Source of the DNA: Fidelibacterota bacterium
Lineage (GTDB): Bacteria > Fidelibacterota > UBA2242
Direction of reading: 5' to 3'
DNA: 64,000 bases
Assembly: GCA_016782645.1 (NCBI GenBank)
Contig: JADHYC010000002.1
Span: 20,324 to 84,323 of the forward strand
This document shows, one piece after another, positions 7,131 through 49,320 of the stretch. The translations under genes and the position numbers were made by a program. How positions within the stretch are numbered: the stretch's first letter is position 1; each line of letters starts with the position of its first letter. Below the pieces are notes generated by a model. The model did no database searches, was not told where the DNA came from, and saw nothing but the letters and a program-made list of their open reading frames with translations.

Positions 7131-7135
7131 GCCAC

Positions 7136-10378: not shown

Positions 10379-10392
10379 TTTTCATATAAGAA

Positions 10393-15635: not shown

Positions 15636-15664
15636 TTGACAATTAGACATTCTTTTTGTATAAT
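15636..15664 (+). promoter_or_regulatory. Consensus sigma70 promoter for ssb
   Basis: TTGACA-17 nt-TATAAT, perfect match, 73 nt before the ssb ATG. Confidence 0.85.
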
Positions 15665-15737
15665 AATGGCAAAATACCGCAATTTCGTTAAAAGAGCGGT
15701 GGAGCGTTGTTTATCAATTTAAAAATGGAGGAGGTCT

Positions 15738-32700: not shown

Positions 32701-32971
32701 TGGGGATCCAATGGTTTATAAGGCAGTCAGAATTCCAAAATACGCTAAATTTGATCCCGCTACCGGGGAGCTTGTCTGGCAGCCTAAAAAATCGCAGAAA
32801 GGTGTTAATGATATTGTTTTTGAAGTTGTAGACTCGCACGGATGGAGTACAATTCAGGAATTCCAGGTTCATGTTTTTCACAATCCGGGGACGAAAAGAA
32901 TATCATTCATTCGCAGTACGATTATTCTGTTGGCTTTGGTCGGTGTTATTATTGCAGTTCAAATGTTATAA
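29765..32971 (+). CDS. Large surface protein: FG-GAP/VCBS-like repeats + tandem putative Ig (He_PIG/cadherin-like) domains + C-terminal TM
   Basis: Signal peptide; about six DxDGDG-type loops; repeats of type Y.L..AP.GM.I...G.I.W.P; hydrophobic C-terminus. Confidence 0.8.
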   Translation: MRLKKLTFLIVLFLVYFGFVGSNFAQLREPTIFPFKQKDITLVRTAGGFNFDNDDYFDIVGIASLVDSKGSKMPRTTYLVHFEESVTGDFNILWKFNIPGNVHGDFTDVVVTDIDGDGMQEIVAVINISEVISGKSPSWLYIFEYSDGFDTEPTATMSLTGSLPAWPRPIYLDKGDIDGDGRNDLVISSSGPGRGVSIVSSEGDVLTENLGFLSQLFAPEILHGILPFRAVAADIDTFPGCELLIFGGKEEFKTDVYSLNQKLEHVLSYAFTNIERGDFDISNISIGDLDGDGFSEVIIPLKSGGAQLLWREEGCLRTSCLFPDNINIETLSILDLNSNGLDEIIIHQPATSIITQFEFDVSGPISDINSYRQTVYVNPLLENVIYIDIVPVLSASSRFTGSIVIPFIHPDFYQHGLCYWQLEDIAPLADRGLVEEVLEEVDAALAVKDTLKLEIVEPPFSEMDALVSKYSGIEGEEVSLPALPTQEGVVATAFPHREVIKPDLLVHPGDKVIHPIQIPGLPLDNLKDLNVNVETPPGMKFDLAKKSFSWVPVDSQLGLHKVKASFFWEGEKAIQSFSIYVNFPPKILSSIPIRDIIQIGETFRFQLEIRDDNEDAFITYKLIEYPSGANINSAGEILWKPSFDQADWHDFIVEVSDGFDADKIEFALFVNHPMSIESSAPNLTFIGKDYRYNPVIKDKNKGFYVSRYSVSPRITDWKTTGIYEIKILDDKIRRNLSKIATRYKKSFLSGSMKIKSNPIQDAFADKGKLVLLYTLDKKRPISSSNLLSKFFKSLSLNIPKHSKPIRCYLYRYNLKEAPNGMKMYPQGKVRWVPSRSQFDFQSLSYTVSDGYFSAEEHAQIYVNCPPSIVSIPDTNAIVNGLWQYEVEVSDLNTDSRIKYKLTQAPEGMVISTKGVISWRPTNLQLNGHTFIVKVSDGMAEDIQKGRVFVNVKPRILSIPKPVALTGLKYEYLLDAEDPNGDPMVYKAVRIPKYAKFDPATGELVWQPKKSQKGVNDIVFEVVDSHGWSTIQEFQVHVFHNPGTKRISFIRSTIILLALVGVIIAVQML

Positions 32972-33326: not shown

Positions 33327-34703
33327 TTGAAAAAAATGTATAAGACCAAAATCCTAATAGCCGATGACGAACCAGATGTATGCAAGTTTCTGGAAGATAT
33401 TTTAAGTGATGAGGGCTACATATTGAATTCAGTCTATAATGGTGAAGCGGCAGTTGAAAAATTCAGTCAAGATTTCTATGATCTTGTATTGTTAGACATC
33501 GGAATGCCGGGAATGAATGGAATACAGGTTTTGAGAAAGTTAAAAAAGTTAGACTCTAATGTCACTGTGATAATGGTGACTGCTTTAGTTGAAGTCGAGA
33601 CCGTGGTGGAAGCAATGAAGTTGGGGGCAGAAAACTACATTGTGAAGCCCTTTAGGGATATTGTTTTAATTAAAACGGCTATTCAAAGTGCTCTTAAAAT
33701 TAAAGAAATTAAAGATGAGAATAAGTACCTCAAAAGCTGTCTGAATTTCCGGTATGTAGGTAAACATATCGTCGGAAATTGTCCAAAGATGCGGGAACTA
33801 TATTCAATGATTGAAAAGGTAGCGCCTCTATTAACCACAATTTTACTAATTGGGGAGACTGGCACAGGAAAAGAGCTGATTGCACGGGCTATACATGACC
33901 TTAGTCTCTGTAAAGGCGAAAAGTTTGTTAGTATTAATTGTGGTGGAATTCCTGAGACTCTGCTAGAATCTACTCTCTTCGGGTATGAAAAAGGTGCTTT
34001 TACAGGAGCATATAAAAGGACAAAAGGAGTTTTTGAAGAAGCTGACGGAGGAACGCTTTTTTTAGATGAAATCGGAGAGACAAGTCACGCATTGCAGGTA
34101 AAGCTTCTTAGAGTATTACAGGACAATAAATTTCAACGCGTTGGAGGAACAGAAGAGGTAAGCGTAGATGTCCGCATTATATCGGCAACGAACAAAGATC
34201 TTGCTACGGAAGTAAAAAACAAGAAGTTTAGGGAAGACCTGTATTATAGAATCAATGTTATTACACTTTTTATACCTCCTCTGCATGAGCGAATAGATGA
34301 TATTCCCCTGTTGGTTAAATTTTTCGTGGATAAACACTCTTCATCTAATAAAAAAGACGTAAATGGTTTCGATCAGGAATCCATTAAAATTATGAAGAAG
34401 TATCCCTGGCCTGGAAATATTCGTGAATTGGAAAATGTAGTAGAACGAGCTGTTGCACTCGCAGAAAACCCCATAATATCTAAAAACGAACTTCCGGATG
34501 TTTTAAAAAGAGAATTGATTTTAGACGTTGACCGTAAGTCTCTAAAGCCTTTTGCCGTAGCAAAGCAACAGTTCGAAAAAAGATATCTGTCTATTATCTT
34601 AGAACGTAATAATTGGAATGTCACGAAAGCTGCAGCCGAATCAGGCATTCCTCGCCAAAACGTATATTTAAAAATAAAAAAATACCAAATAAATAAATCC
34701 TGA
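33327..34703 (+). CDS. Sigma54-dependent response regulator (NtrC/AtoC family)
   Basis: Receiver (IADDEP, LLDIGMP, KP), AAA+ GETGTGKE, intact GAFTGA, FLDEIGE, WPGNIRELEN, Fis-type HTH. Confidence 0.95.
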   Translation: MKKMYKTKILIADDEPDVCKFLEDILSDEGYILNSVYNGEAAVEKFSQDFYDLVLLDIGMPGMNGIQVLRKLKKLDSNVTVIMVTALVEVETVVEAMKLGAENYIVKPFRDIVLIKTAIQSALKIKEIKDENKYLKSCLNFRYVGKHIVGNCPKMRELYSMIEKVAPLLTTILLIGETGTGKELIARAIHDLSLCKGEKFVSINCGGIPETLLESTLFGYEKGAFTGAYKRTKGVFEEADGGTLFLDEIGETSHALQVKLLRVLQDNKFQRVGGTEEVSVDVRIISATNKDLATEVKNKKFREDLYYRINVITLFIPPLHERIDDIPLLVKFFVDKHSSSNKKDVNGFDQESIKIMKKYPWPGNIRELENVVERAVALAENPIISKNELPDVLKRELILDVDRKSLKPFAVAKQQFEKRYLSIILERNNWNVTKAAAESGIPRQNVYLKIKKYQINKS

Positions 34704-34714
34704 CCTTTAAAACA

Positions 34715-34732
34715 TGTAACAAATTTGTTACA
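34715..34732. promoter_or_regulatory. Perfect 18-bp palindrome TGTAACAAATTTGTTACA (candidate enhancer site 1)
   Basis: Exact dyad, TGT-N12-ACA. Confidence 0.6.
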
Positions 34733-34790
34733 CGTATAATTTTTGTGATAATTGTAAATCTAAAGAGATCGCAATTATTATTGTATTGGT

Positions 34791-34808
34791 TGTCATAATA
34801 ATATGACA
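34791..34808. promoter_or_regulatory. 18-bp palindrome TGTCATAATAATATGACA (candidate enhancer site 2)
   Basis: 8 of 9 dyad pairs, TGT-N12-ACA. Confidence 0.55.
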
Positions 34809-34896
34809 TAATTATAAAAACGAATCCCTTTAATATAGACATACTAACATTATTATAAATAGCAGTTTATGTATTTTATATTATAGTGCCATTTTC

Positions 34897-34913
34897 TTGG
34901 TATATAGTTTGAA
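34897..34913 (+). promoter_or_regulatory. Possible sigma54 -24/-12 promoter (imperfect)
   Basis: TTGGTATATAGTTTGAA: GG-N10-GA instead of GG-N10-GC. Confidence 0.3.
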
Positions 34914-34947
34914 ATAGTACAATTTGGATGTTTTAAGAAAGGTGATC

Positions 34948-35169
34948 ATGTTCGATACGGTAAAAATAACTGCGACCTGTCCCTTTTGTTCAAAAACACA
35001 CGCATATGTTCCCTTTGAATATGAAGGTGAATATTTAGTCTGTAAATCATGTGGAAGTATTATCAATCTAAATGATGTCTTCACAAAATTAAATCCAAGA
35101 AGCCAGACAATCCTCAAACAAAATTACATAACCAAACATTTCCTGCGTAAATCCGATATAGAGGAATGA
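34948..35169 (+). CDS. Small Zn-ribbon protein (CPFC...CKSC)
   Basis: Two CxxC motifs; AAGGTG SD before ATG 34948 (track starts at TTG 34924). Confidence 0.7.
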   Translation: MFDTVKITATCPFCSKTHAYVPFEYEGEYLVCKSCGSIINLNDVFTKLNPRSQTILKQNYITKHFLRKSDIEE

Positions 35170-35213
35170 TTCTATAAGGGGTATATACATTTCAAAGGCA
35201 AAGGCTTTAAATA

Positions 35214-36848
35214 GTGTTTAAAATTAAAAATAAGACGCAAAATATCGGTAACAATTTAAAAGTTAAAGACGGACTAATAGGCAAAAGCATTGAAAAAAAT
35301 TCTTTAGAAAGGCGTATCGAAAAATTTGTTCGAATTGCAGAAATTCCAAAGACAGATCTTAATAGTCTTGGATTTATAGATCCTAACACTGTATCGTTAA
35401 TTCCTGAAGAAGTAGCAAGGCGGTTTGCGGTAGTAGCTATCTGTCAAAAAGATAGTCAGATATCTGTTGTAATGTCGAATCCTTTTGATCCGATTGCAAT
35501 TGATACAATTAAAGCCATAACTAGGTATAAATTAGACATCTCTTACGCTTCCCACAATCAAATAGTAGAAGAGATAGAAAAAGTGTACGCCCAGAAAGCA
35601 AATATAGAAGAAAGCATGAAGGAGCTTGTTGACTTTGAGGTCGAGGAAGAAAAGGAGGAAGAAGATGAAGAGTTACTGCGAATTCAAGCGGAAGATGCCC
35701 CTGCGATAAGATTTGTCAATTTGTTGCTTCTTCAGGCTGTTCAAGATAGAGCTAGCGACATTCACATTGAACCACAGGAAAAGGAACTAAAAATTCGACT
35801 TCGGGTTGACGGTATCCTGAGGGAAATAACACCTCCACCTAAGAGAATGCAATCCGGAATAATTTCACGGATAAAAATTTTAGGTAATTTAGATATTGCT
35901 GAACGTAGAGTTCCCCAGGATGGTAGAACGAAAATCAAGATTATGGGGCGACAGATCGATATTAGAATATCCACACTTCCTATAATTTATGGCGAAAAAG
36001 TAGTAATGAGAATCCTGGATAAAGGTAGTGTCTCTTTAAATATTGACGATATCGGTTTCGAACCTCAACTGATGCAGAAATTTAAAGAAATATTGACCCA
36101 GGCTCATGGTATGATTCTGGTTACCGGTCCAACAGGTAGTGGTAAAACAACAACGCTTTACTCTTCATTGAACTTTGTTAATTCACCGGATAAAAACATT
36201 ATCACTGTCGAGGATCCGGTTGAGTATAGATTGAAAGGTATAAACCAGATACAAGCTCGTCCAAAGGTTGGGCTTACTTTTGCTGCTGGTTTGAGGTCTA
36301 TTCTTCGTCAAGATCCCGACATTGTGATGGTCGGAGAAATTCGAGATAAAGAGACAGCAGAAATTGCGATACAGGCTGCTCTTACCGGTCATTTAGTCTT
36401 ATCAACCCTTCATACCAATGACGCTGTTGCAACAATTATCCGATTGCTCAATATGGGCATTGATAAATATTTAATCTGTTCCTCCCTTTCTCTTGTTATT
36501 GCTCAGAGGCTTGCAAGACGAACATGTCTTCATTGCAGAGATCAATATACGCCAGATATAGATATCCAAAATAGGCTTAAATCACTGGGAGTTGATCAAA
36601 AGGAGATAACCTTCTACAAGGGTAAAGGATGCGATCATTGTGCGGGTTCAGGCTTTTGGGGAAGGGTCGCAGTTTATGAATTTTTTCTCTTATACAAAGA
36701 GATCAAAGAAATGATTATCAGTGATGCCTCAGAAGATGAAATGAGACAAAAAGGGCAGGAATTGGGCATGGAATCATTGTTACAAAATGGTTTAAAAAAA
36801 GTAAGAGAGGGCTTAACAACCATTGATGAAGTATTAAGGATTGTATGA
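35214..36848 (+). CDS. pilB: Type IV filament assembly ATPase (PilB/GspE)
   Basis: T2SSE_N domain, RASDIHIEP, ERRVPQDGR, GPTGSGKTTTL, LRQDPDIVMVGEIRD, tetracysteine CLHC...CDHC. Confidence 0.95.
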   Translation: MFKIKNKTQNIGNNLKVKDGLIGKSIEKNSLERRIEKFVRIAEIPKTDLNSLGFIDPNTVSLIPEEVARRFAVVAICQKDSQISVVMSNPFDPIAIDTIKAITRYKLDISYASHNQIVEEIEKVYAQKANIEESMKELVDFEVEEEKEEEDEELLRIQAEDAPAIRFVNLLLLQAVQDRASDIHIEPQEKELKIRLRVDGILREITPPPKRMQSGIISRIKILGNLDIAERRVPQDGRTKIKIMGRQIDIRISTLPIIYGEKVVMRILDKGSVSLNIDDIGFEPQLMQKFKEILTQAHGMILVTGPTGSGKTTTLYSSLNFVNSPDKNIITVEDPVEYRLKGINQIQARPKVGLTFAAGLRSILRQDPDIVMVGEIRDKETAEIAIQAALTGHLVLSTLHTNDAVATIIRLLNMGIDKYLICSSLSLVIAQRLARRTCLHCRDQYTPDIDIQNRLKSLGVDQKEITFYKGKGCDHCAGSGFWGRVAVYEFFLLYKEIKEMIISDASEDEMRQKGQELGMESLLQNGLKKVREGLTTIDEVLRIV

Positions 36849-36849
36849 T

Positions 36850-38082
36850 ATGGCTCAATTCAATTATATCGCGGTTGATTCAAATGGGAAAAAGATAAAA
36901 GGTTCTTCAGAAGCTGAAAACTCTTTTACTTTAGCCGCCCGGCTTAGAAAACAGTCTATCACTATCATATCAGCCGAACGTATAGAAGAAAAGCGAATTA
37001 AGAAGGATAAAAAACCCGGTAACTCTTTTTTTTCTCTAACAAAAAGAATAACGACTGAAGACCTTGTAATTTTCTACCGGCAGCTATCAACAATGGTTGA
37101 CGCCGGAGTGCAGTTAGTGGATAGCCTTGATGTTTTAGCCGATCAAGCGGGGAACCCTACATTCCAGAAGGTGCTTAAGGATGTAAAACGAAATATAGAA
37201 GCCGGAGAGAGTTTTTCGTCGGCATTAGCCCGTTATTCTCATATCTTCCCGGTTCTCGGGATTTCAATGATCAAAGCCGCAGAGATAGGCGGAAACCTCG
37301 GTAATATTCTCAGCCAATTAGCGACTTACGTCGAGGATAAGGATAAAATAGATAAGAAGATAAAATCGGCGACGTCCTATCCCCGGTTTATTTTGATATT
37401 CTTTGGTCTGGTTCTTTCCGGGGTTGTATTTGGATTGATACCAAAATTTAAAGACATCTTTGAATCTTTCGGAGCCGATTTACCGGGTATCACTCTGGTG
37501 ATGATTGCCATAAGTGATTTTGCGAAAAATAACATTCTCTATGAGATCATTTTGATAATAGGATTAATAGCAGGATTTAAAGTATTCGCTCGCAGCGATC
37601 GGGGACGCCACTTTATTGACGGCATGAAATTTAAAATCCCTGTTTTCGGAAAAATGGCAGTGAAATCCACTATAGCCCGCTTCTGCAAAACTTTGGGTAC
37701 ATTGACCAAAAACAGCGTACAGCTGGTGGACGCTCTTATTATTTCTGCGGAAACGGCTAATAATGTTGTCATTCAGGAAATCGTGGAAGATGTGAAGAAG
37801 AATGTAACCGGTGGAGCATCTCTTGCCGGATCGATGCAAAATCACGCAATCTTTCCGGTTATGATGGTTAAAATGATAGCGGTGGGAGAACAGTCCGGCG
37901 CTATGGAAATCATGCTGGAAAAGGTCTCTGAGTTTTACGACAGGCAGTTTAACTCTTCAATTGACGGTCTTACCTCAATTATAGAGCCGGTGTTAATGAT
38001 CGGACTCGGAGCTATAGCGCTGATTGTAGTTCTTGCCGTGTATCTCCCCATTTTCCAAATGTCGGGAATGATTGGTGGGTAG
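36850..38082 (+). CDS. pilC: Type IV filament platform protein (PilC/GspF)
   Basis: MAQFNYIAVD start, FYRQLSTMVDAGV, two T2SSF repeats, AVGEQSGAME, IEPVLMI...YLPIFQM. Confidence 0.95.
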   Translation: MAQFNYIAVDSNGKKIKGSSEAENSFTLAARLRKQSITIISAERIEEKRIKKDKKPGNSFFSLTKRITTEDLVIFYRQLSTMVDAGVQLVDSLDVLADQAGNPTFQKVLKDVKRNIEAGESFSSALARYSHIFPVLGISMIKAAEIGGNLGNILSQLATYVEDKDKIDKKIKSATSYPRFILIFFGLVLSGVVFGLIPKFKDIFESFGADLPGITLVMIAISDFAKNNILYEIILIIGLIAGFKVFARSDRGRHFIDGMKFKIPVFGKMAVKSTIARFCKTLGTLTKNSVQLVDALIISAETANNVVIQEIVEDVKKNVTGGASLAGSMQNHAIFPVMMVKMIAVGEQSGAMEIMLEKVSEFYDRQFNSSIDGLTSIIEPVLMIGLGAIALIVVLAVYLPIFQMSGMIGG

Positions 38083-38090
38083 TGTCGAAT

Positions 38091-38129
38091 AAGCCTTCCG
38101 GGGAATAAAAATCATCCTCCGGAAGGCTT
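38091..38129 (+). terminator. Strong hairpin between pilC and the major pilin
   Basis: AAGCCTTCCGG...CCGGAAGGCTT, perfect 11-bp stem; no clear U-tract. Confidence 0.6.
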
Positions 38130-38193
38130 GAAAATTGAGTTAAACAAATCGACTTCAAAAAATTCATGAAGTTGAAAAAAGGAGGAAAGTAAA

Positions 38194-38604
38194 ATGAAGA
38201 AATTCTTCAGAAACCAAAAAGGTTTCACCCTTGTCGAGTTGATGATTGTCATCGTCATCGTTGGTATATTGGCTGCGGTAGCCGTGCCTATCTACACAGC
38301 CAATATCAGAAAAGCGAAAATGTCGGAATGCGACGCCGCGCTCGGAACTGTCCGAACGGCGCTGCGGGTCTATTATGCGACTGCCGATCCGATACCTAAA
38401 TATCCTACAGCGGCAGCAGGCACTCAAGTATCTGCTGTTAGTGGTTTGGATATCGATGCAGCCGACCTGGCTGGAAAATATTTCATCGCCACCAATTACA
38501 CTCTGACTTCCGCAGACACATTCTACACGATTAAATGCGACAATGCTTTACTAACTACTCCTCGCGAGCTTAATGAAATAGGCGTTTTCAGTGGCGGTTT
38601 ATAA
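38194..38604 (+). CDS. pilA: Major type IV pilin
   Basis: Class III signal KG|FTLVELMIVIVIVGILAAVAVP; strong AGGAGG SD. Confidence 0.92.
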   Translation: MKKFFRNQKGFTLVELMIVIVIVGILAAVAVPIYTANIRKAKMSECDAALGTVRTALRVYYATADPIPKYPTAAAGTQVSAVSGLDIDAADLAGKYFIATNYTLTSADTFYTIKCDNALLTTPRELNEIGVFSGGL

Positions 38605-38630
38605 CAGGTGATTACAAAAGAGGGGGCAAC

Positions 38631-39104
38631 ATGTCCCCTCTTTTCTTTTTTAAGATTATGATGGCAAGATTTAGCAATATCAGAAAATTTTTAGTCGACG
38701 AATCCGGCACGACACTTGTGGAAATGATGGTGGCTATTGTCATAACTACTATTATCATGATCGGGGGGTTGCAATTTTTCTATGGGGGTAAACTCTTTTT
38801 GAATCACGGCAAAAGCAGGCGTATCGCACTCGCCATTGCCGAGCAAAGAATGGAGACGATTCTGCGCTATCCATATAATCAAATGGCGGACAGCCTATCT
38901 GAAGTAAACACGGTAATAGGCGGCAAGTGGACGAGAAGCACAACATTCAGCGGCGTAGATGACGCAACTGACGGTCTCGGAGCAGGAGATAGCGATGGAA
39001 ATACCGACGATTACCGGGAGATTACAATTACGGTAGATTGGGGAGAATCGTCAAACAAAAGTATCTCAATAAAAAATTACATTAGCGAATACGGTCAGCA
39101 ATAA
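38631..39104 (+). CDS. Minor pilin (PilV-like)
   Basis: SG|TTLVEMMVAIVI class III signal; ITITVDW C-terminal strand. Confidence 0.8.
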   Translation: MSPLFFFKIMMARFSNIRKFLVDESGTTLVEMMVAIVITTIIMIGGLQFFYGGKLFLNHGKSRRIALAIAEQRMETILRYPYNQMADSLSEVNTVIGGKWTRSTTFSGVDDATDGLGAGDSDGNTDDYREITITVDWGESSNKSISIKNYISEYGQQ

Positions 39105-39119
39105 GACAATAGAAACGAT

Positions 39120-39641
39120 ATGGTCAAAACAAAATATACAGGACTTTCGCAGAATGGATTTACATTAATTGAGTTAATGATAACCATACTCATTTCATCC
39201 ATAGTCGCAATCGTCGTCGGGACTATAGTATTTACAGCCCAAAAATCTTTTATAGATGGATCCAAACAGGTCCGGTTGCAGCGCGATTACTCGCTTATTG
39301 TTGAATTTCTTTCAAGCGATATACGCTCCGGTATAGCCGATTCATCTTATATTTATACCGATTCCTCGACTGTAGACACCGGACCCGCTGTTAATGGCGG
39401 CAGATGTCTTAAAGTAGGATTGAGCGCAACGGAAAAGCAGCTGTTTTTTCAAGGCGGCAAAGATTTTGTTATTGTTACACCAAGCGGAACGAAGACTCGA
39501 CTCGTTACAGGAGTTATAGATACATTATGGTTTTATTATGACAATGGACCTGATTCCAATCGATATGTCAATTTCGATCTGGCAATGAGCAAAAAAGATC
39601 AAAAGATTTCAACCAACCACAGTTTTTTTTTTCGTAATTAG
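39120..39641 (+). CDS. Minor pilin (PilW-like)
   Basis: NG|FTLIELMITILI class III signal. Confidence 0.82.
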   Translation: MVKTKYTGLSQNGFTLIELMITILISSIVAIVVGTIVFTAQKSFIDGSKQVRLQRDYSLIVEFLSSDIRSGIADSSYIYTDSSTVDTGPAVNGGRCLKVGLSATEKQLFFQGGKDFVIVTPSGTKTRLVTGVIDTLWFYYDNGPDSNRYVNFDLAMSKKDQKISTNHSFFFRN

Positions 39642-39644
39642 AGA

Positions 39645-40448
39645 ATGCTTATGTTTATTAAACTTATACTATTCTGCATCGGGGCAATAATCGGGAGTTT
39701 CCTAAATGTCGTTATTTACCGCTTGCCTCGACATGAGTCTCTTTTATTTCCCGATTCCCACTGCCCGCAGTGCGGAGAAAAAATAGACTGGTTCGACAAT
39801 ATTCCCATTCTCAGTTTTTTCATACTCGGGAGAAAATGCCGGCACTGCAAATTACCCATCCCTGCAAGATACCCGATAGTGGAGATATTGTCAGCCGTTT
39901 TATTAGTAATTATTTACCATGTTTACGGGTTCAGCTATGAATTTCTTCTTTACGTAACATTATCGGCCCTGTTACTGACGGTTACATTCACCGATTTGGA
40001 AAAGAGGGAAATTCCAAACACTGTGATTTTGATTGGAGCGATTGCAGGACTTTGCATGTCGCTGATTTTTTGGCCTGTCTGCGTCCCGCCCAGCTGGACA
40101 GGCTGTCCTTTGAATTTTATCAACTCTTTGATTGCCTTTTTAGCTGGCGGCGGCATAATGATATTCTGGACAGTAATAGGAAAACTACTGTTTAAAAAAG
40201 AGGGTATCGGCGCCGGAGATATTAAGTTAGTTGCCATGACAAGTATCTTTCTGGGACTTCAGAACACATTGATGGCGCTGTTTTTAAGCTTTTTATTAGC
40301 GACTATCGTAGGGATATCTATGATTCTAATAAAAAAAGCACGTATGGACAGCAGTATTCCCTTTGCCCCGTTTCTTGCTTCCGGCGCTTTAATAAGTTTA
40401 ATGTGCGGCAGTCAGGTCTTTTCATGGTATTTCAATATAATGAGGTAA
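39645..40448 (+). CDS. pilD: Prepilin peptidase/N-methyltransferase
   Basis: IGSFLNVVIYRLP, SHCPQC, NIPILSF..GRKCRHC, TDLEKREIPN, GAGDIKL, IPFAPFL. Confidence 0.96.
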   Translation: MLMFIKLILFCIGAIIGSFLNVVIYRLPRHESLLFPDSHCPQCGEKIDWFDNIPILSFFILGRKCRHCKLPIPARYPIVEILSAVLLVIIYHVYGFSYEFLLYVTLSALLLTVTFTDLEKREIPNTVILIGAIAGLCMSLIFWPVCVPPSWTGCPLNFINSLIAFLAGGGIMIFWTVIGKLLFKKEGIGAGDIKLVAMTSIFLGLQNTLMALFLSFLLATIVGISMILIKKARMDSSIPFAPFLASGALISLMCGSQVFSWYFNIMR

Positions 40449-40451
40449 AAA

Positions 40452-41396
40452 ATGGGCGCTTTTAGAAATATTATCAAATCCGAAGACGGAAGTATTCTGG
40501 GAATGGTTTTAATTTTCTTTCTTTTTCTGACCATTATTGGCACGGCGTTTCTTTCCCTGGCTGCGCAGGAAGGGAAATTAAGCATACGAAGCGTGCAGAG
40601 AACGCAGGCTTTGGCATCCGCCGAGAGCGGAATCAACATCGGTTTGTGGCGCTTAAATTACGGACCCGATTCCCAGGGGACTTTCTCAAATGGTTCGATG
40701 TCGGTTACTTACGACTCGGTTGCCCAAATCCTGACGTCAACCGGAACATCGGTATCGGCATACAAAACGGTATCTGTAGAATTGTGGAAGGATCATCCGT
40801 TTAACCACATTGTCGCCTATAAGACCCAGTTGGATACCAGCAATTATACCTTAAATCATCTGAAAGGTCGCGGAATCAAACATTTCGATCCGTTGCCCGG
40901 AGCAGATAGCACATATTATGATTCTATTGCCGATTTTCATCATATTGGAGATACAAGCTTTAGCGCTCCGCTGAATAGCGGAATTCATTATATAGATGGC
41001 AACGTAACTATGAAAAACGGCAGCATTCTAATCGGCACTCTCTTCGTCACAGGCGGCATAAAGTTTCTAGGAACTGTTTTAATAGAAGCTCAACAGATGC
41101 CCGACAGCTCGCTTTATTATCCAGCCGTAGTTGTCGGCGATACCGCTGAGACAGATATACTCGGAACTCCCCTGCTGATAATAAAAGGGGCGGTATTCTC
41201 GACAGGCTATGTGAATTTCAAAGGAGACACACTGACCGGACCAATTGTGGCAAACAAAGTAGTGCTCAAAAGCGGCGTTGTAATCACAGATTACGGAAAT
41301 GAAAAATATTACAAATATCCACCCGGATTCTTAGGTCCGGATATTTATGATTGGGAAAAATTTATTAAGAAAGGCAGCTGGGCAAACAGCAACTGA
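40452..41396 (+). CDS. PilX/GspK-like minor pilin
   Basis: DG|SILGMVL hydrophobic N-terminus lacking Glu5; QALASAESGI motif. Confidence 0.75.
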   Translation: MGAFRNIIKSEDGSILGMVLIFFLFLTIIGTAFLSLAAQEGKLSIRSVQRTQALASAESGINIGLWRLNYGPDSQGTFSNGSMSVTYDSVAQILTSTGTSVSAYKTVSVELWKDHPFNHIVAYKTQLDTSNYTLNHLKGRGIKHFDPLPGADSTYYDSIADFHHIGDTSFSAPLNSGIHYIDGNVTMKNGSILIGTLFVTGGIKFLGTVLIEAQQMPDSSLYYPAVVVGDTAETDILGTPLLIIKGAVFSTGYVNFKGDTLTGPIVANKVVLKSGVVITDYGNEKYYKYPPGFLGPDIYDWEKFIKKGSWANSN

Positions 41397-41402
41397 GCAG
41401 AT

Positions 41403-42473
41403 ATGTTGATCAAAGAAAAAAAATCAGTCGGTGTCGACATCGGGAGCAACGTGATCAAAATGATCGGATTGCGCCGAAAAAAGAAGATCAAGATCGAATT
41501 CATTAAGCTGACAGACCTTTATATAAGCAGAAATGCTAAACGACCCGAAGATTTAAGCGACACCCTGTTAGTCCAGGTAATTCGTGGACTAAACGGTGAA
41601 ATAAAGGGCGGTGTAAGAAAAGTTAAGACAAGCGTTTCCGGGCCAAACGCGCTGGTGCGCAGCATGGAATTACCTAATTTATCCGAAAATGAAATCTTAT
41701 CGGCAATCAGATGGAAACTTGGTAGCATTATTCCTTTCAATATCGACGATGTGGAAATCGATTTCCAGGTACTGAACATCAATAATGATAGCAATATGCA
41801 GACTGTTCTTATCGGAATAGTTTCTACAAATAAAATGAAGAAACATCTGGACATCTTAACACGGGCACATCTTGAACCGGAGATTGTTGAGATTGATACG
41901 CTTGCAATCTACAACTGCTTTATAACTCTGCAGGGTTTGCATCCTGATAAAACCGTTGCAATATTTAATATTGGCGCCGAGTGTGCCACATTGATTATAA
42001 TGCACCCGGACCACGATCCCTTTTTTAAATCTATCGCAATCGGCGGAAATACGCTTACCCGGGATATCGAAAGAACGCTTCATATATCATTTATAGACGC
42101 GGAACAACAGAAAATTGAAATGAACTACCAACCATCCCATAATACTGATAATACTAACGATTATAAAGATATCGGCTGGAAAGGTCCCCTGCTTTCGATG
42201 GTCGCTAAATTAGCGGAAGAGCTCAAGAAAGCGGATATATATTACCAAATTTTGTACGGTGAAGAAGGGCTCAAGTGTATTTATCTAACTGGTGGCGGTG
42301 CGAAATTAAAAAACCTCGATTACTTGTTGGCAGACGCTGTGAAAGTCCCTGTAACTCTCTGGAATCCGTTAAAATCGGAAAAACTTGAGTACAATCAGGA
42401 AATCGGAAATATTGACGATCTGGGACTGCACTTTGCCACTTCGTTAGGACTTGCATTGCGAGATGAGTTATGA
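41403..42473 (+). CDS. pilM: PilM (FtsA/actin-like)
   Basis: VGVDIGSNVIK, IGGNTLTRDI, YLTGGGAKL. Confidence 0.9.
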   Translation: MLIKEKKSVGVDIGSNVIKMIGLRRKKKIKIEFIKLTDLYISRNAKRPEDLSDTLLVQVIRGLNGEIKGGVRKVKTSVSGPNALVRSMELPNLSENEILSAIRWKLGSIIPFNIDDVEIDFQVLNINNDSNMQTVLIGIVSTNKMKKHLDILTRAHLEPEIVEIDTLAIYNCFITLQGLHPDKTVAIFNIGAECATLIIMHPDHDPFFKSIAIGGNTLTRDIERTLHISFIDAEQQKIEMNYQPSHNTDNTNDYKDIGWKGPLLSMVAKLAEELKKADIYYQILYGEEGLKCIYLTGGGAKLKNLDYLLADAVKVPVTLWNPLKSEKLEYNQEIGNIDDLGLHFATSLGLALRDEL

Positions 42474-43063
42474 AAAAGATAACGATAGATCTTCTCGGAA
42501 AAGCCACAATTAGAAAAAAGCAGAAAAGAATTAGATATCTTATTGCTTTTCTCTACGTAGTGGTCTGGGTTTTTTCCCTGCTCACACTTTTTTATGTCCA
42601 CAAAACAAATTTATTTATCTCCTCAGTATATCAAAAGGAGATCAATAAAATCGCAACTGAAGTGGAATTGCAAAGCCCGAAACTCGAGAGAATAAAAAAA
42701 CTATATGAAGAAAAAAAAGAGATCGAATCAAAAAAAAGAATCTACCTTCAAAGTTATCACAGACCCGGTAACTGGCTAAGTAAAATGGTATACCTTTCCA
42801 ATGCAATTCCCGGAAACATACGATTAGAGCAAGTTGCCGTAAATGCTAATCCGGCAAAAGGCAAAAGTGAAAAAATGAAGTTAACCGGATATGCTCTCAT
42901 TGATACAGATAAACAGGATCAAAACCAGTTGAATATTTTTAAACAGGCGATTGATAAACAAGATAGGTTCATGGAAGAATTTAAAAGAGTAGATATGTTG
43001 GAAAATCGAATAGGAAAAAAGGGGAACGATCCCATTATGTCCTTTACGATAGGGATCTATTAG
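42470..43063 (+). CDS. pilN: PilN-like bitopic protein
   Basis: IDLL N-terminal motif, one TM, coiled coil, IPGNIRLEQV ferredoxin-like start; follows pilM. Confidence 0.75.
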   Translation: MKKITIDLLGKATIRKKQKRIRYLIAFLYVVVWVFSLLTLFYVHKTNLFISSVYQKEINKIATEVELQSPKLERIKKLYEEKKEIESKKRIYLQSYHRPGNWLSKMVYLSNAIPGNIRLEQVAVNANPAKGKSEKMKLTGYALIDTDKQDQNQLNIFKQAIDKQDRFMEEFKRVDMLENRIGKKGNDPIMSFTIGIY

Positions 43064-43065
43064 AT

Positions 43066-43644
43066 ATGGATAAAAGCCAACTAAAAAAGACGTCATTGCT
43101 AAAAAACCTATTCAAGCTTCACTGGATGTTGCTGGCAATATTCATCTATTCGGGCACTATTGCCGGCGGTAATTTTTTCATCATTAAGCCACAATTAATA
43201 AGATACAATGACCTAAAGGAACAGAAGAAAAATCTCGATAATATTTATCTTAAAATCCGCTCTGCCGATATCGAACAGGCTTTAAATAATCTCGATACAA
43301 AATTGAAAATTTGTCAGTCACTCAAAAGTTCGTTTGAATCCCGCGTTGCAAATGAAAAAGAGTTTTCCGCTCTGCTCGGTGAATTGAACTACATAGTAAA
43401 GAAATCAGAACTCCGTCTCAATTCCATCGCTCCTATGAAAAAAGGAGAGAAAATATTCGGCAAATATTACAAGCAACCTATCAATATCAAATTCCGCGGT
43501 TCTTATTCGAGATTTTTATCTTTTCTGAATAATCTCGAAAATTCCCGTTACTGGCTGCTGATCGATTCATTTAGCATATCGCCCGATTCCCGAGATCCGG
43601 CAAACTATAACTTTGACGTTGTAATTTTTTCAATAGTGATTTAA
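43066..43644 (+). CDS. pilO: PilO-like protein
   Basis: TM + coiled coil, PINIKFRGSYSRFLSFLNNLEN. Confidence 0.8.
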   Translation: MDKSQLKKTSLLKNLFKLHWMLLAIFIYSGTIAGGNFFIIKPQLIRYNDLKEQKKNLDNIYLKIRSADIEQALNNLDTKLKICQSLKSSFESRVANEKEFSALLGELNYIVKKSELRLNSIAPMKKGEKIFGKYYKQPINIKFRGSYSRFLSFLNNLENSRYWLLIDSFSISPDSRDPANYNFDVVIFSIVI

Positions 43645-44169
43645 ATGAAAAACAAAAAAAACAAGATCATTATTTTAATAGTACTTGTACTATCTTTAAC
43701 TCTCCTGGGAATATTCCAATTAAAAAGAACGGGAAAACGGGAGTATAACGCGCACATGGTACAAATCAACTTTGATCAGAAAGATGACTTCACCCAAGTC
43801 GAAAATATTATAAAAGAGATTTTAGACGAAGTAGTAAAGGAAATTGACGAGTCGCATTTTGATTCAATTGACTCCAAATATAAAAGTTTTAAACAATTGA
43901 GAGACCCGTTTATTTTTGTTAAAGCCAGGATGCCGGCTTCCAAAAGTAAAATAGCCGGGAAAAAGCAAAAAACCAGAAACAGTGTGCCTAGACTCGAGCT
44001 CAAAGGCATTATCTTTGATAAAGAAAACCCCATGGCGATAATAAACGGAGAGGTTTATAAAGAAGGAGATTTAATTAAAAGTTTCCGGGTCGTGCGTATT
44101 ACAAAAGACGGCGTCAAATTGGTTTCAAGAAATAATCAGATTTATTTAAAGGCACCGGAGTTTGATTAA
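43645..44169 (+). CDS. PilP/GspB/GspC-like protein
   Basis: TM, LRDPF motif, LELKGIIFD..MAIINGEVYKEGD beta-domain. Confidence 0.65.
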   Translation: MKNKKNKIIILIVLVLSLTLLGIFQLKRTGKREYNAHMVQINFDQKDDFTQVENIIKEILDEVVKEIDESHFDSIDSKYKSFKQLRDPFIFVKARMPASKSKIAGKKQKTRNSVPRLELKGIIFDKENPMAIINGEVYKEGDLIKSFRVVRITKDGVKLVSRNNQIYLKAPEFD

Positions 44170-44527
44170 GGATGAGAAAATGATATCAAAGAAAAAATTA
44201 TGGACTAAATTTTTGATTCTTTTTATCACGCTCCTGATTGTTCCAATTTTTATTTTCGAATTCATAATGATCTCGAAAAACACCGAATCCATTCATCGCA
44301 ATATAAACCTTAAACGCCTTTTTGAAGATAAACTTAATACGATTTTGGTTAAAAAAAGGGCGGAATTTTCTCTTACGGAATTGCTCTCTGCCACAGACGG
44401 ACAAATAAAAAAAGGAGACGTCTTCCTGAATTATAAAGTTGCAGAATATGACTCCAATACAATTGTGCTTAAAAAAGTGAATATTAAAAAATTAGAAACA
44501 GAAGAGATATTTAAACTGGAAAGGTAA
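44162..44527 (+). CDS. Hypothetical bitopic protein in pilus cluster
   Basis: One TM near N-terminus; overlaps neighbours (start may be ATG 44180). Confidence 0.6.
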   Translation: MIKDEKMISKKKLWTKFLILFITLLIVPIFIFEFIMISKNTESIHRNINLKRLFEDKLNTILVKKRAEFSLTELLSATDGQIKKGDVFLNYKVAEYDSNTIVLKKVNIKKLETEEIFKLER

Positions 44528-44538
44528 AAGAATAAATT

Positions 44539-45162
44539 ATGAAAAAATCAATAATATCCTTTATAATAATTTTTATCCTGGTGATGTTAAGTTGCGACAA
44601 AGATATATTAAAACCGAAGAGCATAACCCTGGCAACTTTGAAAGGAAATGTAATAGAATCAGTAAAACAAACTCCTTTATCCGGGGTTACGGTGAGCGTT
44701 TTTGACCATACCGAGTCTATACAAACCGATTCAATGGGACAATATACCTTACAAGTGGAATTAGAAACCTCCACTTCTTCGGAGCAGGTAACGCTAATAA
44801 CCCAAAAAGTCGGTTATAATTCTTCTCAAGTTGGCAACCTAACACTTAAAGCTAACGAAACAGTGACTGTACCTACGATTTCACTGGTCCCTGAAACCTG
44901 TATAGCCGATATAGAAGGTATGGTTATAGACACTACCGGTTCAGCCGTTGATTCCGTATTGATATCGATCTCTAATCATGCAGCAACTGGATTCACCAAC
45001 GAATCAGGAGCATTCAGTTTTTCTGTTGAAATCAGCAACCCTACCGAAAATGTAACGGTCAGCGCCACGAAACCGTTCTACCAGGAGGCACAATACAGTG
45101 TTTCTCTGGAATACGATCAAACTACCGTCGTTCCAACCTTCGTATTAAAGTTATTACCCTAA
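44539..45162 (+). CDS. Lipoprotein with two carboxypeptidase-regulatory-like beta-sandwich repeats
   Basis: Lipobox MLSC (Cys19); repeats LKGNVIES...TDSMGQYTL and IEGMVIDT...TNESGAFSF. Confidence 0.72.
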   Translation: MKKSIISFIIIFILVMLSCDKDILKPKSITLATLKGNVIESVKQTPLSGVTVSVFDHTESIQTDSMGQYTLQVELETSTSSEQVTLITQKVGYNSSQVGNLTLKANETVTVPTISLVPETCIADIEGMVIDTTGSAVDSVLISISNHAATGFTNESGAFSFSVEISNPTENVTVSATKPFYQEAQYSVSLEYDQTTVVPTFVLKLLP

Positions 45163-45169
45163 TTAATAA

Positions 45170-46591
45170 TTGAGAGTAATTATGAAAAGGATCAATCATA
45201 TTTTAAAATATCTTCTGATAATCTCCATTGTTTTTCTTACTGAATCTTTTTGGTACGAGACTCCGACCCGGCTACTAGCTCAGACTAAAGAAGAGGGATT
45301 AATCTCCATAAATCTGAAATATGCTTCTGTAAATAATGTTTTAAAAGTGTTGGGAGAAAAAACCGGCATTAAATTCGTCGTTGACCCGGCTATTCAAAAC
45401 CGCCGGATTACCGTAAACATTAACGATGTGTTACCCGATGACGCAATTTCGGTCATCATGGAATCAAACGGACTTGGTTATCGAAGTATAGAGGGCGTGG
45501 ATGTTTACATGGTCAGTGATCTGAGTAAAATAATGTCTCGCACCGTAGTAAAACGAGTTTCATGTCAGTTTGCCGAAGCCGTGAAATTGCGGGATATTCT
45601 AAACAAAATCGTTACGCCGGGAATCGGAGCAGTTTTGGCAGACGAACGGACGAATTCGCTGATTATCAAAGAAAATCCGGAAGTAATTGATAGATTGGAG
45701 GCGCTAATAGATGAATTAGACCAAACGACGCCACAGATATATATTCAGGCGGCTATTGCCGAAATATCCTTGACAAAAAACAAAGAAGCTGGTCTCGAAT
45801 GGTTGTGGAAAGACCCAAACCTGTTGAGTTCCACCGATAGAGTGGGAACAAGATTCGATTTGCGTCAAACAAAAACCGGTGGTGCTGGAGGACAGGGACA
45901 ATCCCAATATACGGACGGCGAAGGCAATCCCTTTCCATTTTCGCTTCCCATAGGTCAAGGGCTTGGAATCGGAATCATAAACATTCATATTGACGCCGTA
46001 CTTCGTTCTATTCAGACAGACTACGATTTAAATATTCTCTCTCGCCCACATTTGGTAACCCTTGATAACCAGGAAGCAACTATAGAGGTTGGCGACCAAA
46101 TCCCATACAAAGTTTTAAGTCAATACGGAATAACATCATACGAATTTAAATCGGCAACCGTAAAACTACTTGTAAAACCACATATTAACAACGATAGGAC
46201 AATCACTATAGAATTAAAACCAAGTGCCGATTTCCAGAACGGTCAGACACCGGATGGTATTCCTATTATTGCTACCCGAAAGGCTGATACTAAGGTAAAA
46301 GTGGCTAATGGTAAAACGATTGTTATCGGAGGACTCATGCGGGACTCAGATGTTCAAACTATCAATAAAGTTCCTATACTGGGGTCAATTCCCATCCTGG
46401 GTGCTTTGTTTCGAAGCAAGATAAACATAAAAGAGAAAACAGAACTTGTGATTTTCATTACTCCCACTATTATTACTGATGAAATCAGTGAAGAGATACT
46501 AAGACCGGAGAAATCTCTTTCGGAAAAAGCCATGAAAAAGTTGGATAAACTTATTAAGAGTAAAACTGATGAAAAACGTACCGGACATTAA
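45170..46591 (+). CDS. pilQ: Secretin (PilQ/GspD family)
   Basis: STN/N domain, ADERTNSLII, QIYIQAAIAEI, LSRPHLVTLDNQEATIEVG, KVPILGSIPILGALF, TELVIFITPTI. Confidence 0.93.
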   Translation: MRVIMKRINHILKYLLIISIVFLTESFWYETPTRLLAQTKEEGLISINLKYASVNNVLKVLGEKTGIKFVVDPAIQNRRITVNINDVLPDDAISVIMESNGLGYRSIEGVDVYMVSDLSKIMSRTVVKRVSCQFAEAVKLRDILNKIVTPGIGAVLADERTNSLIIKENPEVIDRLEALIDELDQTTPQIYIQAAIAEISLTKNKEAGLEWLWKDPNLLSSTDRVGTRFDLRQTKTGGAGGQGQSQYTDGEGNPFPFSLPIGQGLGIGIINIHIDAVLRSIQTDYDLNILSRPHLVTLDNQEATIEVGDQIPYKVLSQYGITSYEFKSATVKLLVKPHINNDRTITIELKPSADFQNGQTPDGIPIIATRKADTKVKVANGKTIVIGGLMRDSDVQTINKVPILGSIPILGALFRSKINIKEKTELVIFITPTIITDEISEEILRPEKSLSEKAMKKLDKLIKSKTDEKRTGH

Positions 46592-46761
46592 TTTCAATTT
46601 GCTTGAGGAAGTATTTTGCAGGCATACGCTTGTTTTAATTGTAGCGAACGTATTTCAAGTTACAATCAAAACTGTTAATCAGTATTTTCTCTCGACAAAA
46701 AACAAAAAGTAATTATGAAAATTATGCGGATGATAATTATTTTAAAAAGAGGTGTTAAATT

Positions 46762-47169
46762 ATGACAACAAGCCCAAGAATGAAAGTTTTGGTTGTAGAT
46801 GATAATCATGAAATACTAAGTATTTTCAGCGAAATCTTCAAGGATTCGGATTTATCTATCTTTACTACGGATAACGGACAGAGTGCAATTTTGGAAATGA
46901 GAAACGAAGAATATGATATAGCTTTCATTGACGTATATATGCCCAATATGAACGGGTTGGCCACATTAAAGGAATTAAAAAAAATCAATCCTGACCTGAT
47001 AGCAGTAATGATTTCAGGCTATAAAAACGAAAGTATGCTGGAAGAAGCCTTGAAAATTGGCGCTGACGAATATCTGTTCAAACCACTCGATATTCAGAGT
47101 ATTATGAGTACTGTCGTAAAATGTGCAAAAAAGATGGGAATCGATGAACATCTGGAAATAATCCAGTGA
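46762..47169 (+). CDS. Single-domain response regulator (receiver)
   Basis: VLVVDD, IAFIDVYMPNMNG, MISG, LFKP. Confidence 0.9.
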   Translation: MTTSPRMKVLVVDDNHEILSIFSEIFKDSDLSIFTTDNGQSAILEMRNEEYDIAFIDVYMPNMNGLATLKELKKINPDLIAVMISGYKNESMLEEALKIGADEYLFKPLDIQSIMSTVVKCAKKMGIDEHLEIIQ

Positions 47170-48671: not shown

Positions 48672-49320
48672 ATTCTGCTTGTTCTTGTGCTAAGTTAATC
48701 TTTTCAGAAATTTGCTCGGAGAGATCGTCTAAGTTGTAATCAATATTCTTATATAATTTAATAGGTTCGCCAAATACCATAGCAATTTTAGAGAATATTT
48801 TTGGTTGGTGGAACTTATCCCAGCTGTTGAATATTCTGTTTCTTGAAGCAGAAGCACCCAGAGGAATTATTGAGGTGCCCGCTTTTTGTATGATTTTTAG
48901 AGTGCTAATCTTGACCTTTTTTAATGGACCGCGAGGACCATCGGGTGTTATCCAAATAATCTTGCCGGGCTGCTTTATTGTCCAGAGAAGTTCAGCAGTT
49001 ACTGCAAAGGCTCGTCTATTACTGGACCCCCTTAGCTGTTGACTATAACCAAGTTTTTTAGCAACTAGTGATGCTGTTTCAGCATCGGAATGAGTCCCAA
49101 TCAAGGGAATGATATTTTTCATTCTAAGGTAGTAGTAGGGAATAACCCAATATCCATGCCAGAACATCAGAATCGCACTGGTTGATCCCCTTTTAACATT
49201 ATTAAGATGATGGGTTCCAAGCTCTTTATACTTGCATGTTGAGAAAAGTATTCGGAGAAAGATGTGACCATAAGTTGAAGCAACCTGCTTCAGCGCTAAT
49301 TTTTTCTTTTTGTTAATCAT
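48655..49320 (-). CDS. DUF374 / lysophospholipid acyltransferase-like protein
   Basis: ILMFWHG, LRGSSNR, WITPDGPRGP, FNSWDKFHQPK..SKIAMVFGEPI. Confidence 0.8.
   Translation of the reverse strand: MINKKKKLALKQVASTYGHIFLRILFSTCKYKELGTHHLNNVKRGSTSAILMFWHGYWVIPYYYLRMKNIIPLIGTHSDAETASLVAKKLGYSQQLRGSSNRRAFAVTAELLWTIKQPGKIIWITPDGPRGPLKKVKISTLKIIQKAGTSIIPLGASASRNRIFNSWDKFHQPKIFSKIAMVFGEPIKLYKNIDYNLDDLSEQISEKINLAQEQAEYEVKH

Follow-up and report, generated by a model that had tools for sequence, protein, structure and literature searches.

The stretch of DNA analyzed here is 64 kb long (in the following called the window) and carries at positions 33327-47169 a run of 17 co-oriented open reading frames (ORFs) on the + strand. 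This run likely represents a complete sigma-54-dependent filament operon of Marinimicrobia, which belongs to the lineage of the type IVa pili (T4aP). Gene identities were assigned by Pfam and NCBIfam profile searches. An initial annotation had listed a sigma-54 activator, a Zn-ribbon gene, PilB, PilC, a major and three minor pilins, PilD, PilM/N/O/P-like proteins, a bitopic protein, a lipoprotein, a secretin and a lone receiver. All these genes were found at their coordinates, but the order had to be corrected: PilD precedes the third minor pilin, so that the pilin gene is followed by minor pilins 1 and 2, PilD and then the third, PilX-like minor pilin. Gene content and synteny bear out the idea that the genes of a type IV filament system are gathered here in one self-contained cluster, together with regulators of their own. 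From pilB to the secretin gene, neighbours mostly overlap or are spaced by 0-11 nt, the exceptions being the spacers between pilC and the pilin gene (111 nt), between the pilin gene and minor pilin 1 (26 nt) and between minor pilins 1 and 2 (15 nt). The cluster is flanked by unrelated genes.

The host phylum, Marinimicrobia/Neomarinimicrobiota, is given by the names of the closest ATPase homologues (70-99% identity). Neomarinimicrobiota equals Fidelibacterota and belongs to the FCB group in the NCBI taxonomy, in agreement with the FCB-group host suspected before. The exact ATPase sequence was found on metagenome contigs, and the window is part of one of 94.7 kb. The closest GTDB genome is a Neomarinimicrobiota metagenome-assembled genome (MAG), in which the 314-aa protein encoded downstream of pilD is 90% identical.

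Conservation of the operon in Marinimicrobia

Related loci were collected by a look-up of homologous ATPases and by a scan of GTDB genomes with the 314-aa protein as marker. The scan used one narrow peptide pattern of this marker and returned 10 loci, all of Marinimicrobia type. When synteny was checked in these relatives, as had been suggested with the initial annotation, an order of 14 genes proved to be the same in at least eight further Marinimicrobia lineages (loci L005/6, L019, L022 and L024-L028): activator, PilB, PilC, pilin, minor pilin 1, minor pilin 2, PilD, 314-aa protein, PilM, PilN, PilO, a 174-aa protein, secretin and receiver. Looser versions of the cluster occur in one Zhuqueibacterota MAG and in one FCB-group bacterium. 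The ATPase family is common in ocean data, where one 90%-identity ATPase cluster has a member present on 169 contigs.

Three genes of the window stand outside the shared order, namely those for a 121-aa protein and a lipoprotein and a Zn-ribbon ORF. As they are confined to the lineage of the window with or without its two nearest relatives, they are, judged by this distribution, recent lineage-specific additions and not core parts.

Assembly ATPase and platform protein

The assembly ATPase of the PilB/GspE family (35214-36848, + strand; T2SSE, 482 bits) has an MshEN N-domain, Walker A and B motifs and a tetracysteine motif, and its best matches among solved structures are PilB of Myxococcus and Geobacter with about 500 bits. 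A neighbour-joining tree was calculated from 457 columns with 300 bootstraps scored as bipartitions and PilT as outgroup. References for type II secretion systems (T2SS) came from annotated loci of Yersinia, Pseudomonas, E. coli, Sphingomonas and Nitratiruptor, those for type IV pili (T4P) from Acinetobacter, Myxococcus, Geobacter, Thermus, Deinococcus and Acetoanaerobium, and those for MSH from Legionella and Aeromonas. The Aeromonas reference had been taken as TapB; it groups with Legionella MshE at 100% and was treated as an MSH reference. The ATPase of the window falls into an FCB clade with 96% support, outside the proteobacterial GspE clade (100%) and the reference PilB clade (88%), and the grouping of the FCB clade with T2SS received 0% bootstrap. 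It is not of the MshE type, as the MshE proteins of Legionella and Aeromonas form a separate clade with 100% support. HofB and HofC are long-branch sequences and HofB did not group with the window ATPase.

The inner-membrane platform protein (36841-38082, + strand; two T2SSF domains) is of the PilC type. It shares 35-36% identity with PilC of Acinetobacter and Myxococcus, in comparison to 26-30% with GspF, and its best solved-structure matches are again the Myxococcus and Geobacter proteins, here PilC, while it scores under the lineage-specific NCBIfam PilC cutoffs. In the platform tree the FCB clade is supported by 100% bootstrap and its grouping with T2SS by 0%; grouping on the T4P side reaches only 40%. 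The trees that had been proposed were thus run for ATPase and platform protein, and both proteins are placed in an FCB clade of their own outside the proteobacterial Gsp clades.

In a search of a representative library with the ATPase, the family collapsed into very few 50% clusters, and unnamed PilB-like clusters were among the top matches. The top ATPase representatives (P0155-P0167) are about 1000 aa long with two PilB-like stretches each and are thus tandem-fused double assembly ATPases. On the Candidatus Manganitrophus plasmid CP114559.1 (L032), two PilB-like ATPases are encoded in tandem in a pilus module beside conjugation genes; PilC, PilT and a pair of very large proteins of prepilin type complete this module.

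Pilins and prepilin peptidase

The major prepilin (38194-38604, + strand; 136 aa, N_methyl) is type IVa-like. Its 10-aa leader, MKKFFRNQKG followed by FTLVE, shows G-1, F+1 and E+5 and leaves a mature protein of about 126 aa. The pilin family profile matches best to Geobacter PilA-N, Neisseria PilE and Myxococcus PilA with GspG behind, and with 48.2 bits the pilin stays below the cutoff of the GspG model (88.85). For its AF2 model (pLDDT 88) the sole convincing Foldseek match is Thermus PilA4 with a probability of 0.99 and a TM of 0.53.

Minor pilin 1 (38631-39104, + strand; N_methyl) is GspI/PilV-like, with a weak GspI match and an hhalign E-value of 5e-5 over 54 columns to XcpV. Its annotated start at 38631 lies inside the terminator hairpin 38616-38644 and orthologues start about 9-10 codons later; the annotated start is therefore probably wrong, and the true one is probably Met10 or Met11 at about 38658. 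Across the orthologue alignment this protein has an invariant acidic loop, VDDxxDGxGxxDxDxxxxDY, which resembles a calcium-binding site. Minor pilin 2 (39120-39641, + strand; N_methyl) takes the GspJ/PilW position and is kept in all related loci, and only its N-terminal helix matches XcpW. It is followed by the prepilin peptidase PilD of the bifunctional type (39645-40448, + strand) with A24_N_bact and Peptidase_A24 domains and the motifs CxxC...CxxC and GxGDxK.

The signature gene of the cluster encodes the 314-aa minor pilin in PilX/GspK position (40452-41396, + strand), which is without Glu5 and without Pfam match; its homologues are named PilX N-terminal domain proteins. The AF2 model (pLDDT 86) consists of a long N-terminal helix and a beta-solenoid, and the best Foldseek match, a weak one, is Thermus ComZ (E 0.01). 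Orthologues in eight related loci score 234-643 bits, and in the FCB-group locus L009 a 129-aa ORF was matched with 38 bits. An assignment as GspK was rejected as the N-terminal helix alone aligns. The protein may have a role at the filament tip.

Alignment proteins and secretin

The actin-like cytoplasmic PilM (41403-42473, + strand) scores 138 bits with PilM_2 and 140.6 with TIGR01175 (cutoff 133), whereas only 16.8 bits, far under PilM_2, are reached with T2SSL. The PilN-like bitopic protein (42470-43063, + strand) has no HMM match and was recognized by position, topology and an N-terminal I-x-LL plus basic motif, resembling the N-terminus of E. coli HofN (MNPPINFLPWR). PilO (43066-43644, + strand) exceeds the Pfam PilO cutoff with 34.3 against 22 and has a weak GspM match. 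In PilP position follows a bitopic protein of 174 aa (43645-44169, + strand), which combines an RDPF motif and a Lys/Pro linker with a GspB/GspC-HR-like beta domain at its C-terminus. Its orthologues give weak matches to T2SSB (9/9), CdsD_C (6/9) and T2SSC (2/9), and a weak match to the GspB structure 4wfw was found. This protein is presumed to be the link to the secretin and, going by its profile matches, is the one clearly non-T4aP element of the cluster.

The secretin (45170-46591, + strand; 473 aa) is of a short PilQ/HofQ type, for which Pfam recognizes a weak N0, one Secretin_N and the Secretin domain. No AMIN match was obtained in the Pfam search, as predicted before. The PilQ model TIGR02515 is matched end to end (246 bits, cutoff 284), whereas the model and the structures of GspD can be aligned only from their last N-domain on. 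In a comparison that also included XcpQ, the protein was collinear with PilQ structures (N0-N1-secretin), and it shares 27% identity over 405 residues with E. coli HofQ, again end to end. A hybrid with a T2SS-type secretin was rejected on this domain layout.

The collinearity of this short, AMIN-less secretin with HofQ bears on the question whether the operon encodes a DNA-uptake pilus, for competence or DNA utilisation, of the Hof/Com or Thermus type. PilT-less T4aP carry out DNA uptake in Haemophilus, as cited in PMC6668835. The Hof/Com systems of Enterobacteria and Pasteurellaceae (PpdD-HofBC, HofMNOPQ) also have small PilM/N/O/P-type proteins, Thermus proteins are matched by the model of the pilin (PilA4) and, weakly, by that of the beta-solenoid minor pilin (ComZ), and weak ComP_DUS matches occur in 8/8 pilin orthologues. 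Nevertheless these similarities are weak or generic (Foldseek E-values of 0.01-0.05), the window protein itself is under the ComP_DUS cutoff, HofB and HofC do not group with the window locus, and the contig, over about 84 kb, showed neither comEA nor comEC nor dprA. In addition, Hof is split into two operons, its HofP is a lipoprotein-type PilP, and it has no sigma-54 activator. The Thermus thermophilus T4aP likewise has a compact major pilin (PilA4, wide pilus), which is about 125 aa long and of the same fold, and a minor pilin with a beta-solenoid (ComZ), but differs by a PilF of 900 aa with triple N-domains, a secretin with many extra N-domains and two PilT proteins. We consider a dedicated DNA-uptake pilus rather unlikely.

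Probable placement of the system in the T4aP lineage

The initial annotation had proposed a hybrid of T4aP and T2SS. This is too strong, since the platform protein, the pilin, the secretin layout and PilM with its cutoff are of T4aP type, and the PilO cutoff and the PilN motif likewise point to a T4aP affinity. Judged by these comparisons, the system stands in the T4aP lineage and cannot be called a genuine chimera of T4aP and T2SS; it fits the strict definition of neither. Of the T4aP parts, a PilC-type platform, separate PilM/N/O and a type IVa prepilin with a minor-pilin set (three only, no PilY1) are present and a PilP lipoprotein is not. Of the T2SS parts, the GspL/M/C platform, the GspD N0-N3 secretin and the set of GspG and GspH-I-J-K are missing; no GspL, GspC or GspH was found in the cluster, and similarity to GspM and T2SSB/C is weak. 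T2SS-like traits appear limited to a marginal GspE HMM score and the bitopic GspB/GspC-like protein in PilP position. The features that make the system a variant are, as far as can be read from the genes, the own ATPase clade, the AMIN-less secretin, the bitopic GspB/C-like linker, the beta-solenoid PilX-like pilin and the lack of a linked pilT.

Several results weigh against this placement. The ATPase scores 636.5 with GspE TIGR02533, marginally (6 bits) over the cutoff of 630.25, and misses the cutoff of PilB TIGR02538 (613.9 versus 675.65), and its core is equally similar to GspE (48-51% identity) and to PilB (48-52%). The backbone of the trees is unresolved, these being neighbour-joining trees with few references and no Bacteroidetes sequences. 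A PilP Pfam match was obtained in 0/9 orthologues, and the protein in this position is bitopic with a GspB/GspC-like domain and no lipobox. Foldseek E-values are weak for the models of the 314-aa protein and the pilin (0.01 and 0.05), the -12 element of the promoter described below is TTGA/TTGT and not the canonical TTGC, and pilT, pilY1, a pilotin and a sensor kinase are missing from the cluster.

Some of these points would fit a T2SS-like secretion system derived from T4aP, in which a short pseudopilus drives folded exoproteins, e.g., peptidases or adhesins, out through the secretin without need for retraction. Apart from the GspE cutoff being reached and the PilP-position protein being bitopic with weak GspB/GspC matches, NCBI names relatives GspE, no pilT lies in the cluster or the flanks of any locus, and large surface or secreted proteins are encoded upstream in two loci. 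A model for such a system exists in the Bacteroidetes "T2SS" (Cytophaga hutchinsonii chu_3191-3201, Flavobacterium johnsoniae Fjoh_0611-0622), a PilT-less cluster with PilM/N/O/P-like genes that affects secretion (PMC5553014). Denise et al. (PMC6668835) report that in every case this system branches together with T4aP, and that it may be a secretion system which evolved independently. Going by the published gene table, the window locus contains the same parts list in one cluster, namely secretin (D), ATPase (E), platform (F), pilin (G), peptidase (O), minor pilins and PilMNOP-like genes without PilT, and it likewise stems from the FCB group. The order is different, as in Cytophaga minor pilins, F, G, O, E, D and M/N/O/P follow each other, whereas the window locus begins with E, F and G and continues with minor pilins, O, PilX-like, M, N, O, P and D; also, no sigma-54 activator is reported for the Cytophaga cluster. 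Against secretion speak the single N-domain after N0 in place of the GspD N0-N3 vestibule, a pilin nearer to T4a pilins than to GspG, and the absence of GspL, GspM, GspC and GspH. The large upstream proteins are not conserved between loci, and one has a T9SS sorting tail. In our view a secretion system is improbable, yet still a rival to be reckoned with.

The comparison with the classical systems gives a similar picture. With the Gsp/Xcp T2SS the locus shares the clustering, the absence of PilT, the ATPase just over the GspE cutoff, the GspI-like minor pilin 1 and a bitopic protein like GspC/GspB in PilP position. It differs by having no GspL/M/C/H, a secretin without N1-N2 domains, a pilin that fails the GspG model, and an ATPase and platform protein outside the proteobacterial Gsp clades. 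With the T4aP of Myxococcus xanthus and Geobacter it has in common PilB, PilC, PilD, PilM/N/O, a PilQ-type secretin, a short-leader prepilin and an adjacent sigma-54 activator. In contrast to these, pilT and pilS are not in the cluster, the secretin is AMIN-less, the minor pilins number only three, PilY1 is lacking, the PilP position is taken by a bitopic, GspB/GspC-like protein, the ATPase belongs to a separate clade, and the sigma-54 promoter would drive pilB and the operon, not the pilin gene alone.

Clustering of T4aP genes is not unusual outside Proteobacteria. The initial annotation had described T4aP genes as usually scattered. The Bacteroidetes cluster with PilMNOP-like genes and no PilT is already known (PMC5553014). 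As to novelty, literature searches on Marinimicrobia, SAR406, Marinisomatota or Fidelibacter brought up no description of such pili or of a comparable secretion machinery. In this sense the system is undescribed for the phylum, but it is a compact relative of the ordinary type IVa pili and not a new kind of system. A more far-reaching reading, which we hold only as a speculative one, would see a PilT-independent branch of type IV filaments in FCB candidate phyla (Marinimicrobia, Zhuqueibacterota and relatives) characterized by a separate ATPase clade, a tip pilin with a beta-solenoid and a linker resembling GspB/C. It would have become a secretion or DNA-uptake device from T4aP, independent of the classical T2SS and in parallel to or together with the Bacteroidetes system.

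Linkage of pilT

No second PilB/PilT-type ATPase is encoded in the window. Queries with E. coli YggR and Manganitrophus PilT matched PilB orthologues only, in 294 kb that comprised the window together with a further 20 kb of its contig and the loci of the relatives. In the loci examined pilT is not linked to the cluster, being absent in about 84 kb of contig and, for ten related loci, from the 10 kb on either side of the cluster. The term PilT-less used in the initial annotation holds for these regions and is not extended to the genome, for which it is unproven.

In many bacteria, e.g., Pseudomonas, pilT is unlinked to pilB. Also the T4aP model of Denise et al. (PMC6668835) is a multi-locus one. 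The operon might thus belong to an ordinary retractile T4aP with pilT, and possibly pilS, pilY1 and a pilotin, elsewhere in the genome. All T4aP-type affinities of the cluster agree with this and about 84 kb of the genome are covered, whereas the repeated absence of pilT around ten related loci and the separation of the ATPase clade from the reference PilB clade (96% and 88% support) point in the other direction; direct counter-evidence was not obtained. We regard the ordinary retractile pilus as a serious possibility that falls short of being probable.

Regulation of the operon

The first gene of the run (33327-34703, + strand) encodes an activator with REC (Response_reg), AAA+ sigma-54 interaction (Sigma54_activat) and Fis-type HTH (HTH_8) domains, which is PilR-like in role. 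Its scores are generic for the NtrC/AtoC family, every one under the equivalog cutoff. In the Marinimicrobia loci this gene lies directly upstream of pilB.

The spacer between activator and pilB contains a putative sigma-54-type promoter, TGGTAT-N5-TTGA (34898-34912, + strand), with the GG of the -24 element, 36 nt before the Zn-ribbon ATG. It was recognized by comparing the spacers of relatives: TGG(C/T)A(C/T)-N5-TTG(A/T) is present just upstream of pilB in seven related loci, equal to five further distinct lineages as L005, L006 and L026 are the same organism, and it occurs once per locus at the same place. In the window the pattern TGGYAY-N5-TTGW has 2 matches with 1.1 expected. The canonical consensus TGGCAC-N5-TTGC with up to 2 mismatches gave 34 matches versus 30.5 expected and none in the relevant spacers, and the relaxed -12 pattern was adopted after comparing the relatives.

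Paired upstream sites are the usual enhancer layout for an NtrC-type activator. Two palindromes lie upstream of the promoter and are candidate upstream activating sequences (UAS): TGTAACAAATTTGTTACA (UAS1, 34715-34732), 183 bp before the -24 element, and TGTCATAATAATATGACA (UAS2, 34791-34808), 107 bp before it. Counterparts of UAS1, 18-bp palindromes as well, are located at -163 (L019), -161 (L027), -162 (L028) and -150 (L025), and those of UAS2 at -84 (L019), -83 (L027) and -96 (L026). Across the loci the palindromes are of the type TGT(A/C)A(C/T)-N4-6-(A/G)T(G/T)ACA and are placed about 85-107 and 150-183 bp before the promoter. Only 6 matches to this pattern exist in the window, and 2 of them fall within the 250-bp spacer.

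Right after the pilin gene an intrinsic-terminator-like 13-bp hairpin with T-run (38616-38644, + strand) was detected, the top terminator match of the region. The pilC-pilin spacer folds into two RNA hairpins (38090-38176, + strand; -33.3 kcal/mol, z = -5.2), a possible processing or stability element, of which the first is partly conserved in L019 and L025. Partial termination after the pilin gene may raise pilin relative to the downstream genes, and the hairpins before the gene may contribute in a similar way; together, terminator and hairpins would fit the need for far more pilin than machinery. In L019, the closest GTDB relative, the same spacer is interrupted at about 6440-6960 by a MITE-like insertion of roughly 500 bp that contains two direct repeats, each about 85 bp long, and the conserved hairpin is kept beside the pilin gene. 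New in this analysis are the predicted sigma-54 promoter before pilB, whose position is conserved, the two palindromes upstream of it and the terminator after the pilin gene.

The last gene of the run (46762-47169, + strand) encodes a stand-alone receiver domain protein (Response_reg, no specific family), which follows the secretin in those Marinimicrobia loci whose sequence reaches that far. The cluster has no linked histidine kinase.

Accessory and neighbouring genes

Directly after the promoter lies the Zn-ribbon ORF (34948-35169, + strand; 73 aa, CxxC...CxxC), which matches Zn_Ribbon_TF weakly and under the cutoff. ATG at 34948 is the probable start. As a gene this ORF is uncertain; a gene-caller predicted it in 1/4 contig copies (L004), and it is absent from all related loci, including the relative with the 90% identical 314-aa protein. 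The 121-aa bitopic protein (44162-44527, + strand) has no family match, so that the label of an unassigned accessory gene holds for it, and is found in the window, L019 and partly L022 only. It was tested as a PilP/GspB paralogue and rejected, since hhalign against the 174-aa family gave an E-value of 0.024 over 22 columns only. The 207-aa lipoprotein (44539-45162, + strand) has a lipobox-like LSC and two tandem CarboxypepD_reg beta-sandwich domains according to Pfam. It occurs only in the window, L019 (at least 5 repeats) and L022 with variable repeat number, and from its position it is possibly associated with the secretin.

A 1068-aa protein with FG-GAP and He_PIG (Ig-like) repeats is encoded directly upstream of the activator gene (29765-32971) and could be a surface adhesin; it is not kept beside the cluster in more distant relatives. 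In the FCB-group bacterium (L008/L009, 5613-9533 and 13970-16771) a 1306-aa M6 peptidase with T9SS sorting tail is located upstream of pilB, and the minor pilin genes are interspersed with one for a 933-aa DUF7467 protein, possibly a large adhesin of the tip.

Downstream, convergent with the operon end, lie lipid A/envelope genes on the - strand (47628-52081), namely lpxK, DUF374, lpxB, a PEMT-like methyltransferase and a GFO/IDH/MocA oxidoreductase. A stand-alone GGDEF protein (diguanylate cyclase) is encoded at 58684-59553, 11 kb downstream of the cluster. The window also includes a chromosomal origin region (12374-14642, plus 49-12141 and 14741-16154) with rnpA, yidC, mnmE, mnmG, mfd and three PPIase genes on the - strand and dnaA, lexA and ssb on the + strand. 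The 475-bp spacer between rnpA and dnaA (12758-13232) is the likely oriC, and dnaN, recF, gyrB and gyrA lie just beyond the window edge.

Proposed mechanism and function

We propose that an unlinked sensor kinase would phosphorylate the REC-AAA+-HTH activator, which would then bind the two palindromes upstream of the -24/-12 promoter and switch on the operon with the Zn-ribbon ORF and pilB first. This regulatory logic is inferred. PilD would remove the leader peptides from the 136-aa prepilin and from the minor pilins, and a minimal I/J/K-like minor-pilin set including the beta-solenoid PilX-like cap would prime the filament, which a PilB hexamer on PilC would extend. PilM, PilN, PilO and the bitopic PilP-position protein would join the inner-membrane motor to the AMIN-less PilQ/HofQ-type secretin as the filament exit. 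The post-pilin terminator and the pre-pilin hairpins would set a high ratio of pilin to machinery. Retraction, if any, could come from an unlinked PilT or from PilB itself. As to function, our best guess is that a thin pilus serves to attach to particles or cells and/or to take up DNA, and not to secrete protein in bulk.

The system does not introduce a new principle, as every core part has a known counterpart. What it contributes is an FCB-group lineage in which T4aP-type parts are combined with a GspB/C-like linker and pilT is not linked, and it bears on the suggested repeated origin of secretion systems from T4aP. In the dark ocean, Marinimicrobia (SAR406) count among the uncultured bacteria of highest abundance. 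For these organisms the operon is a candidate means of touching particles, cells or free DNA, and its promoter, activator, pilin and tip protein can be tracked in metatranscriptomes, with Fidelibacter as a cultured relative.

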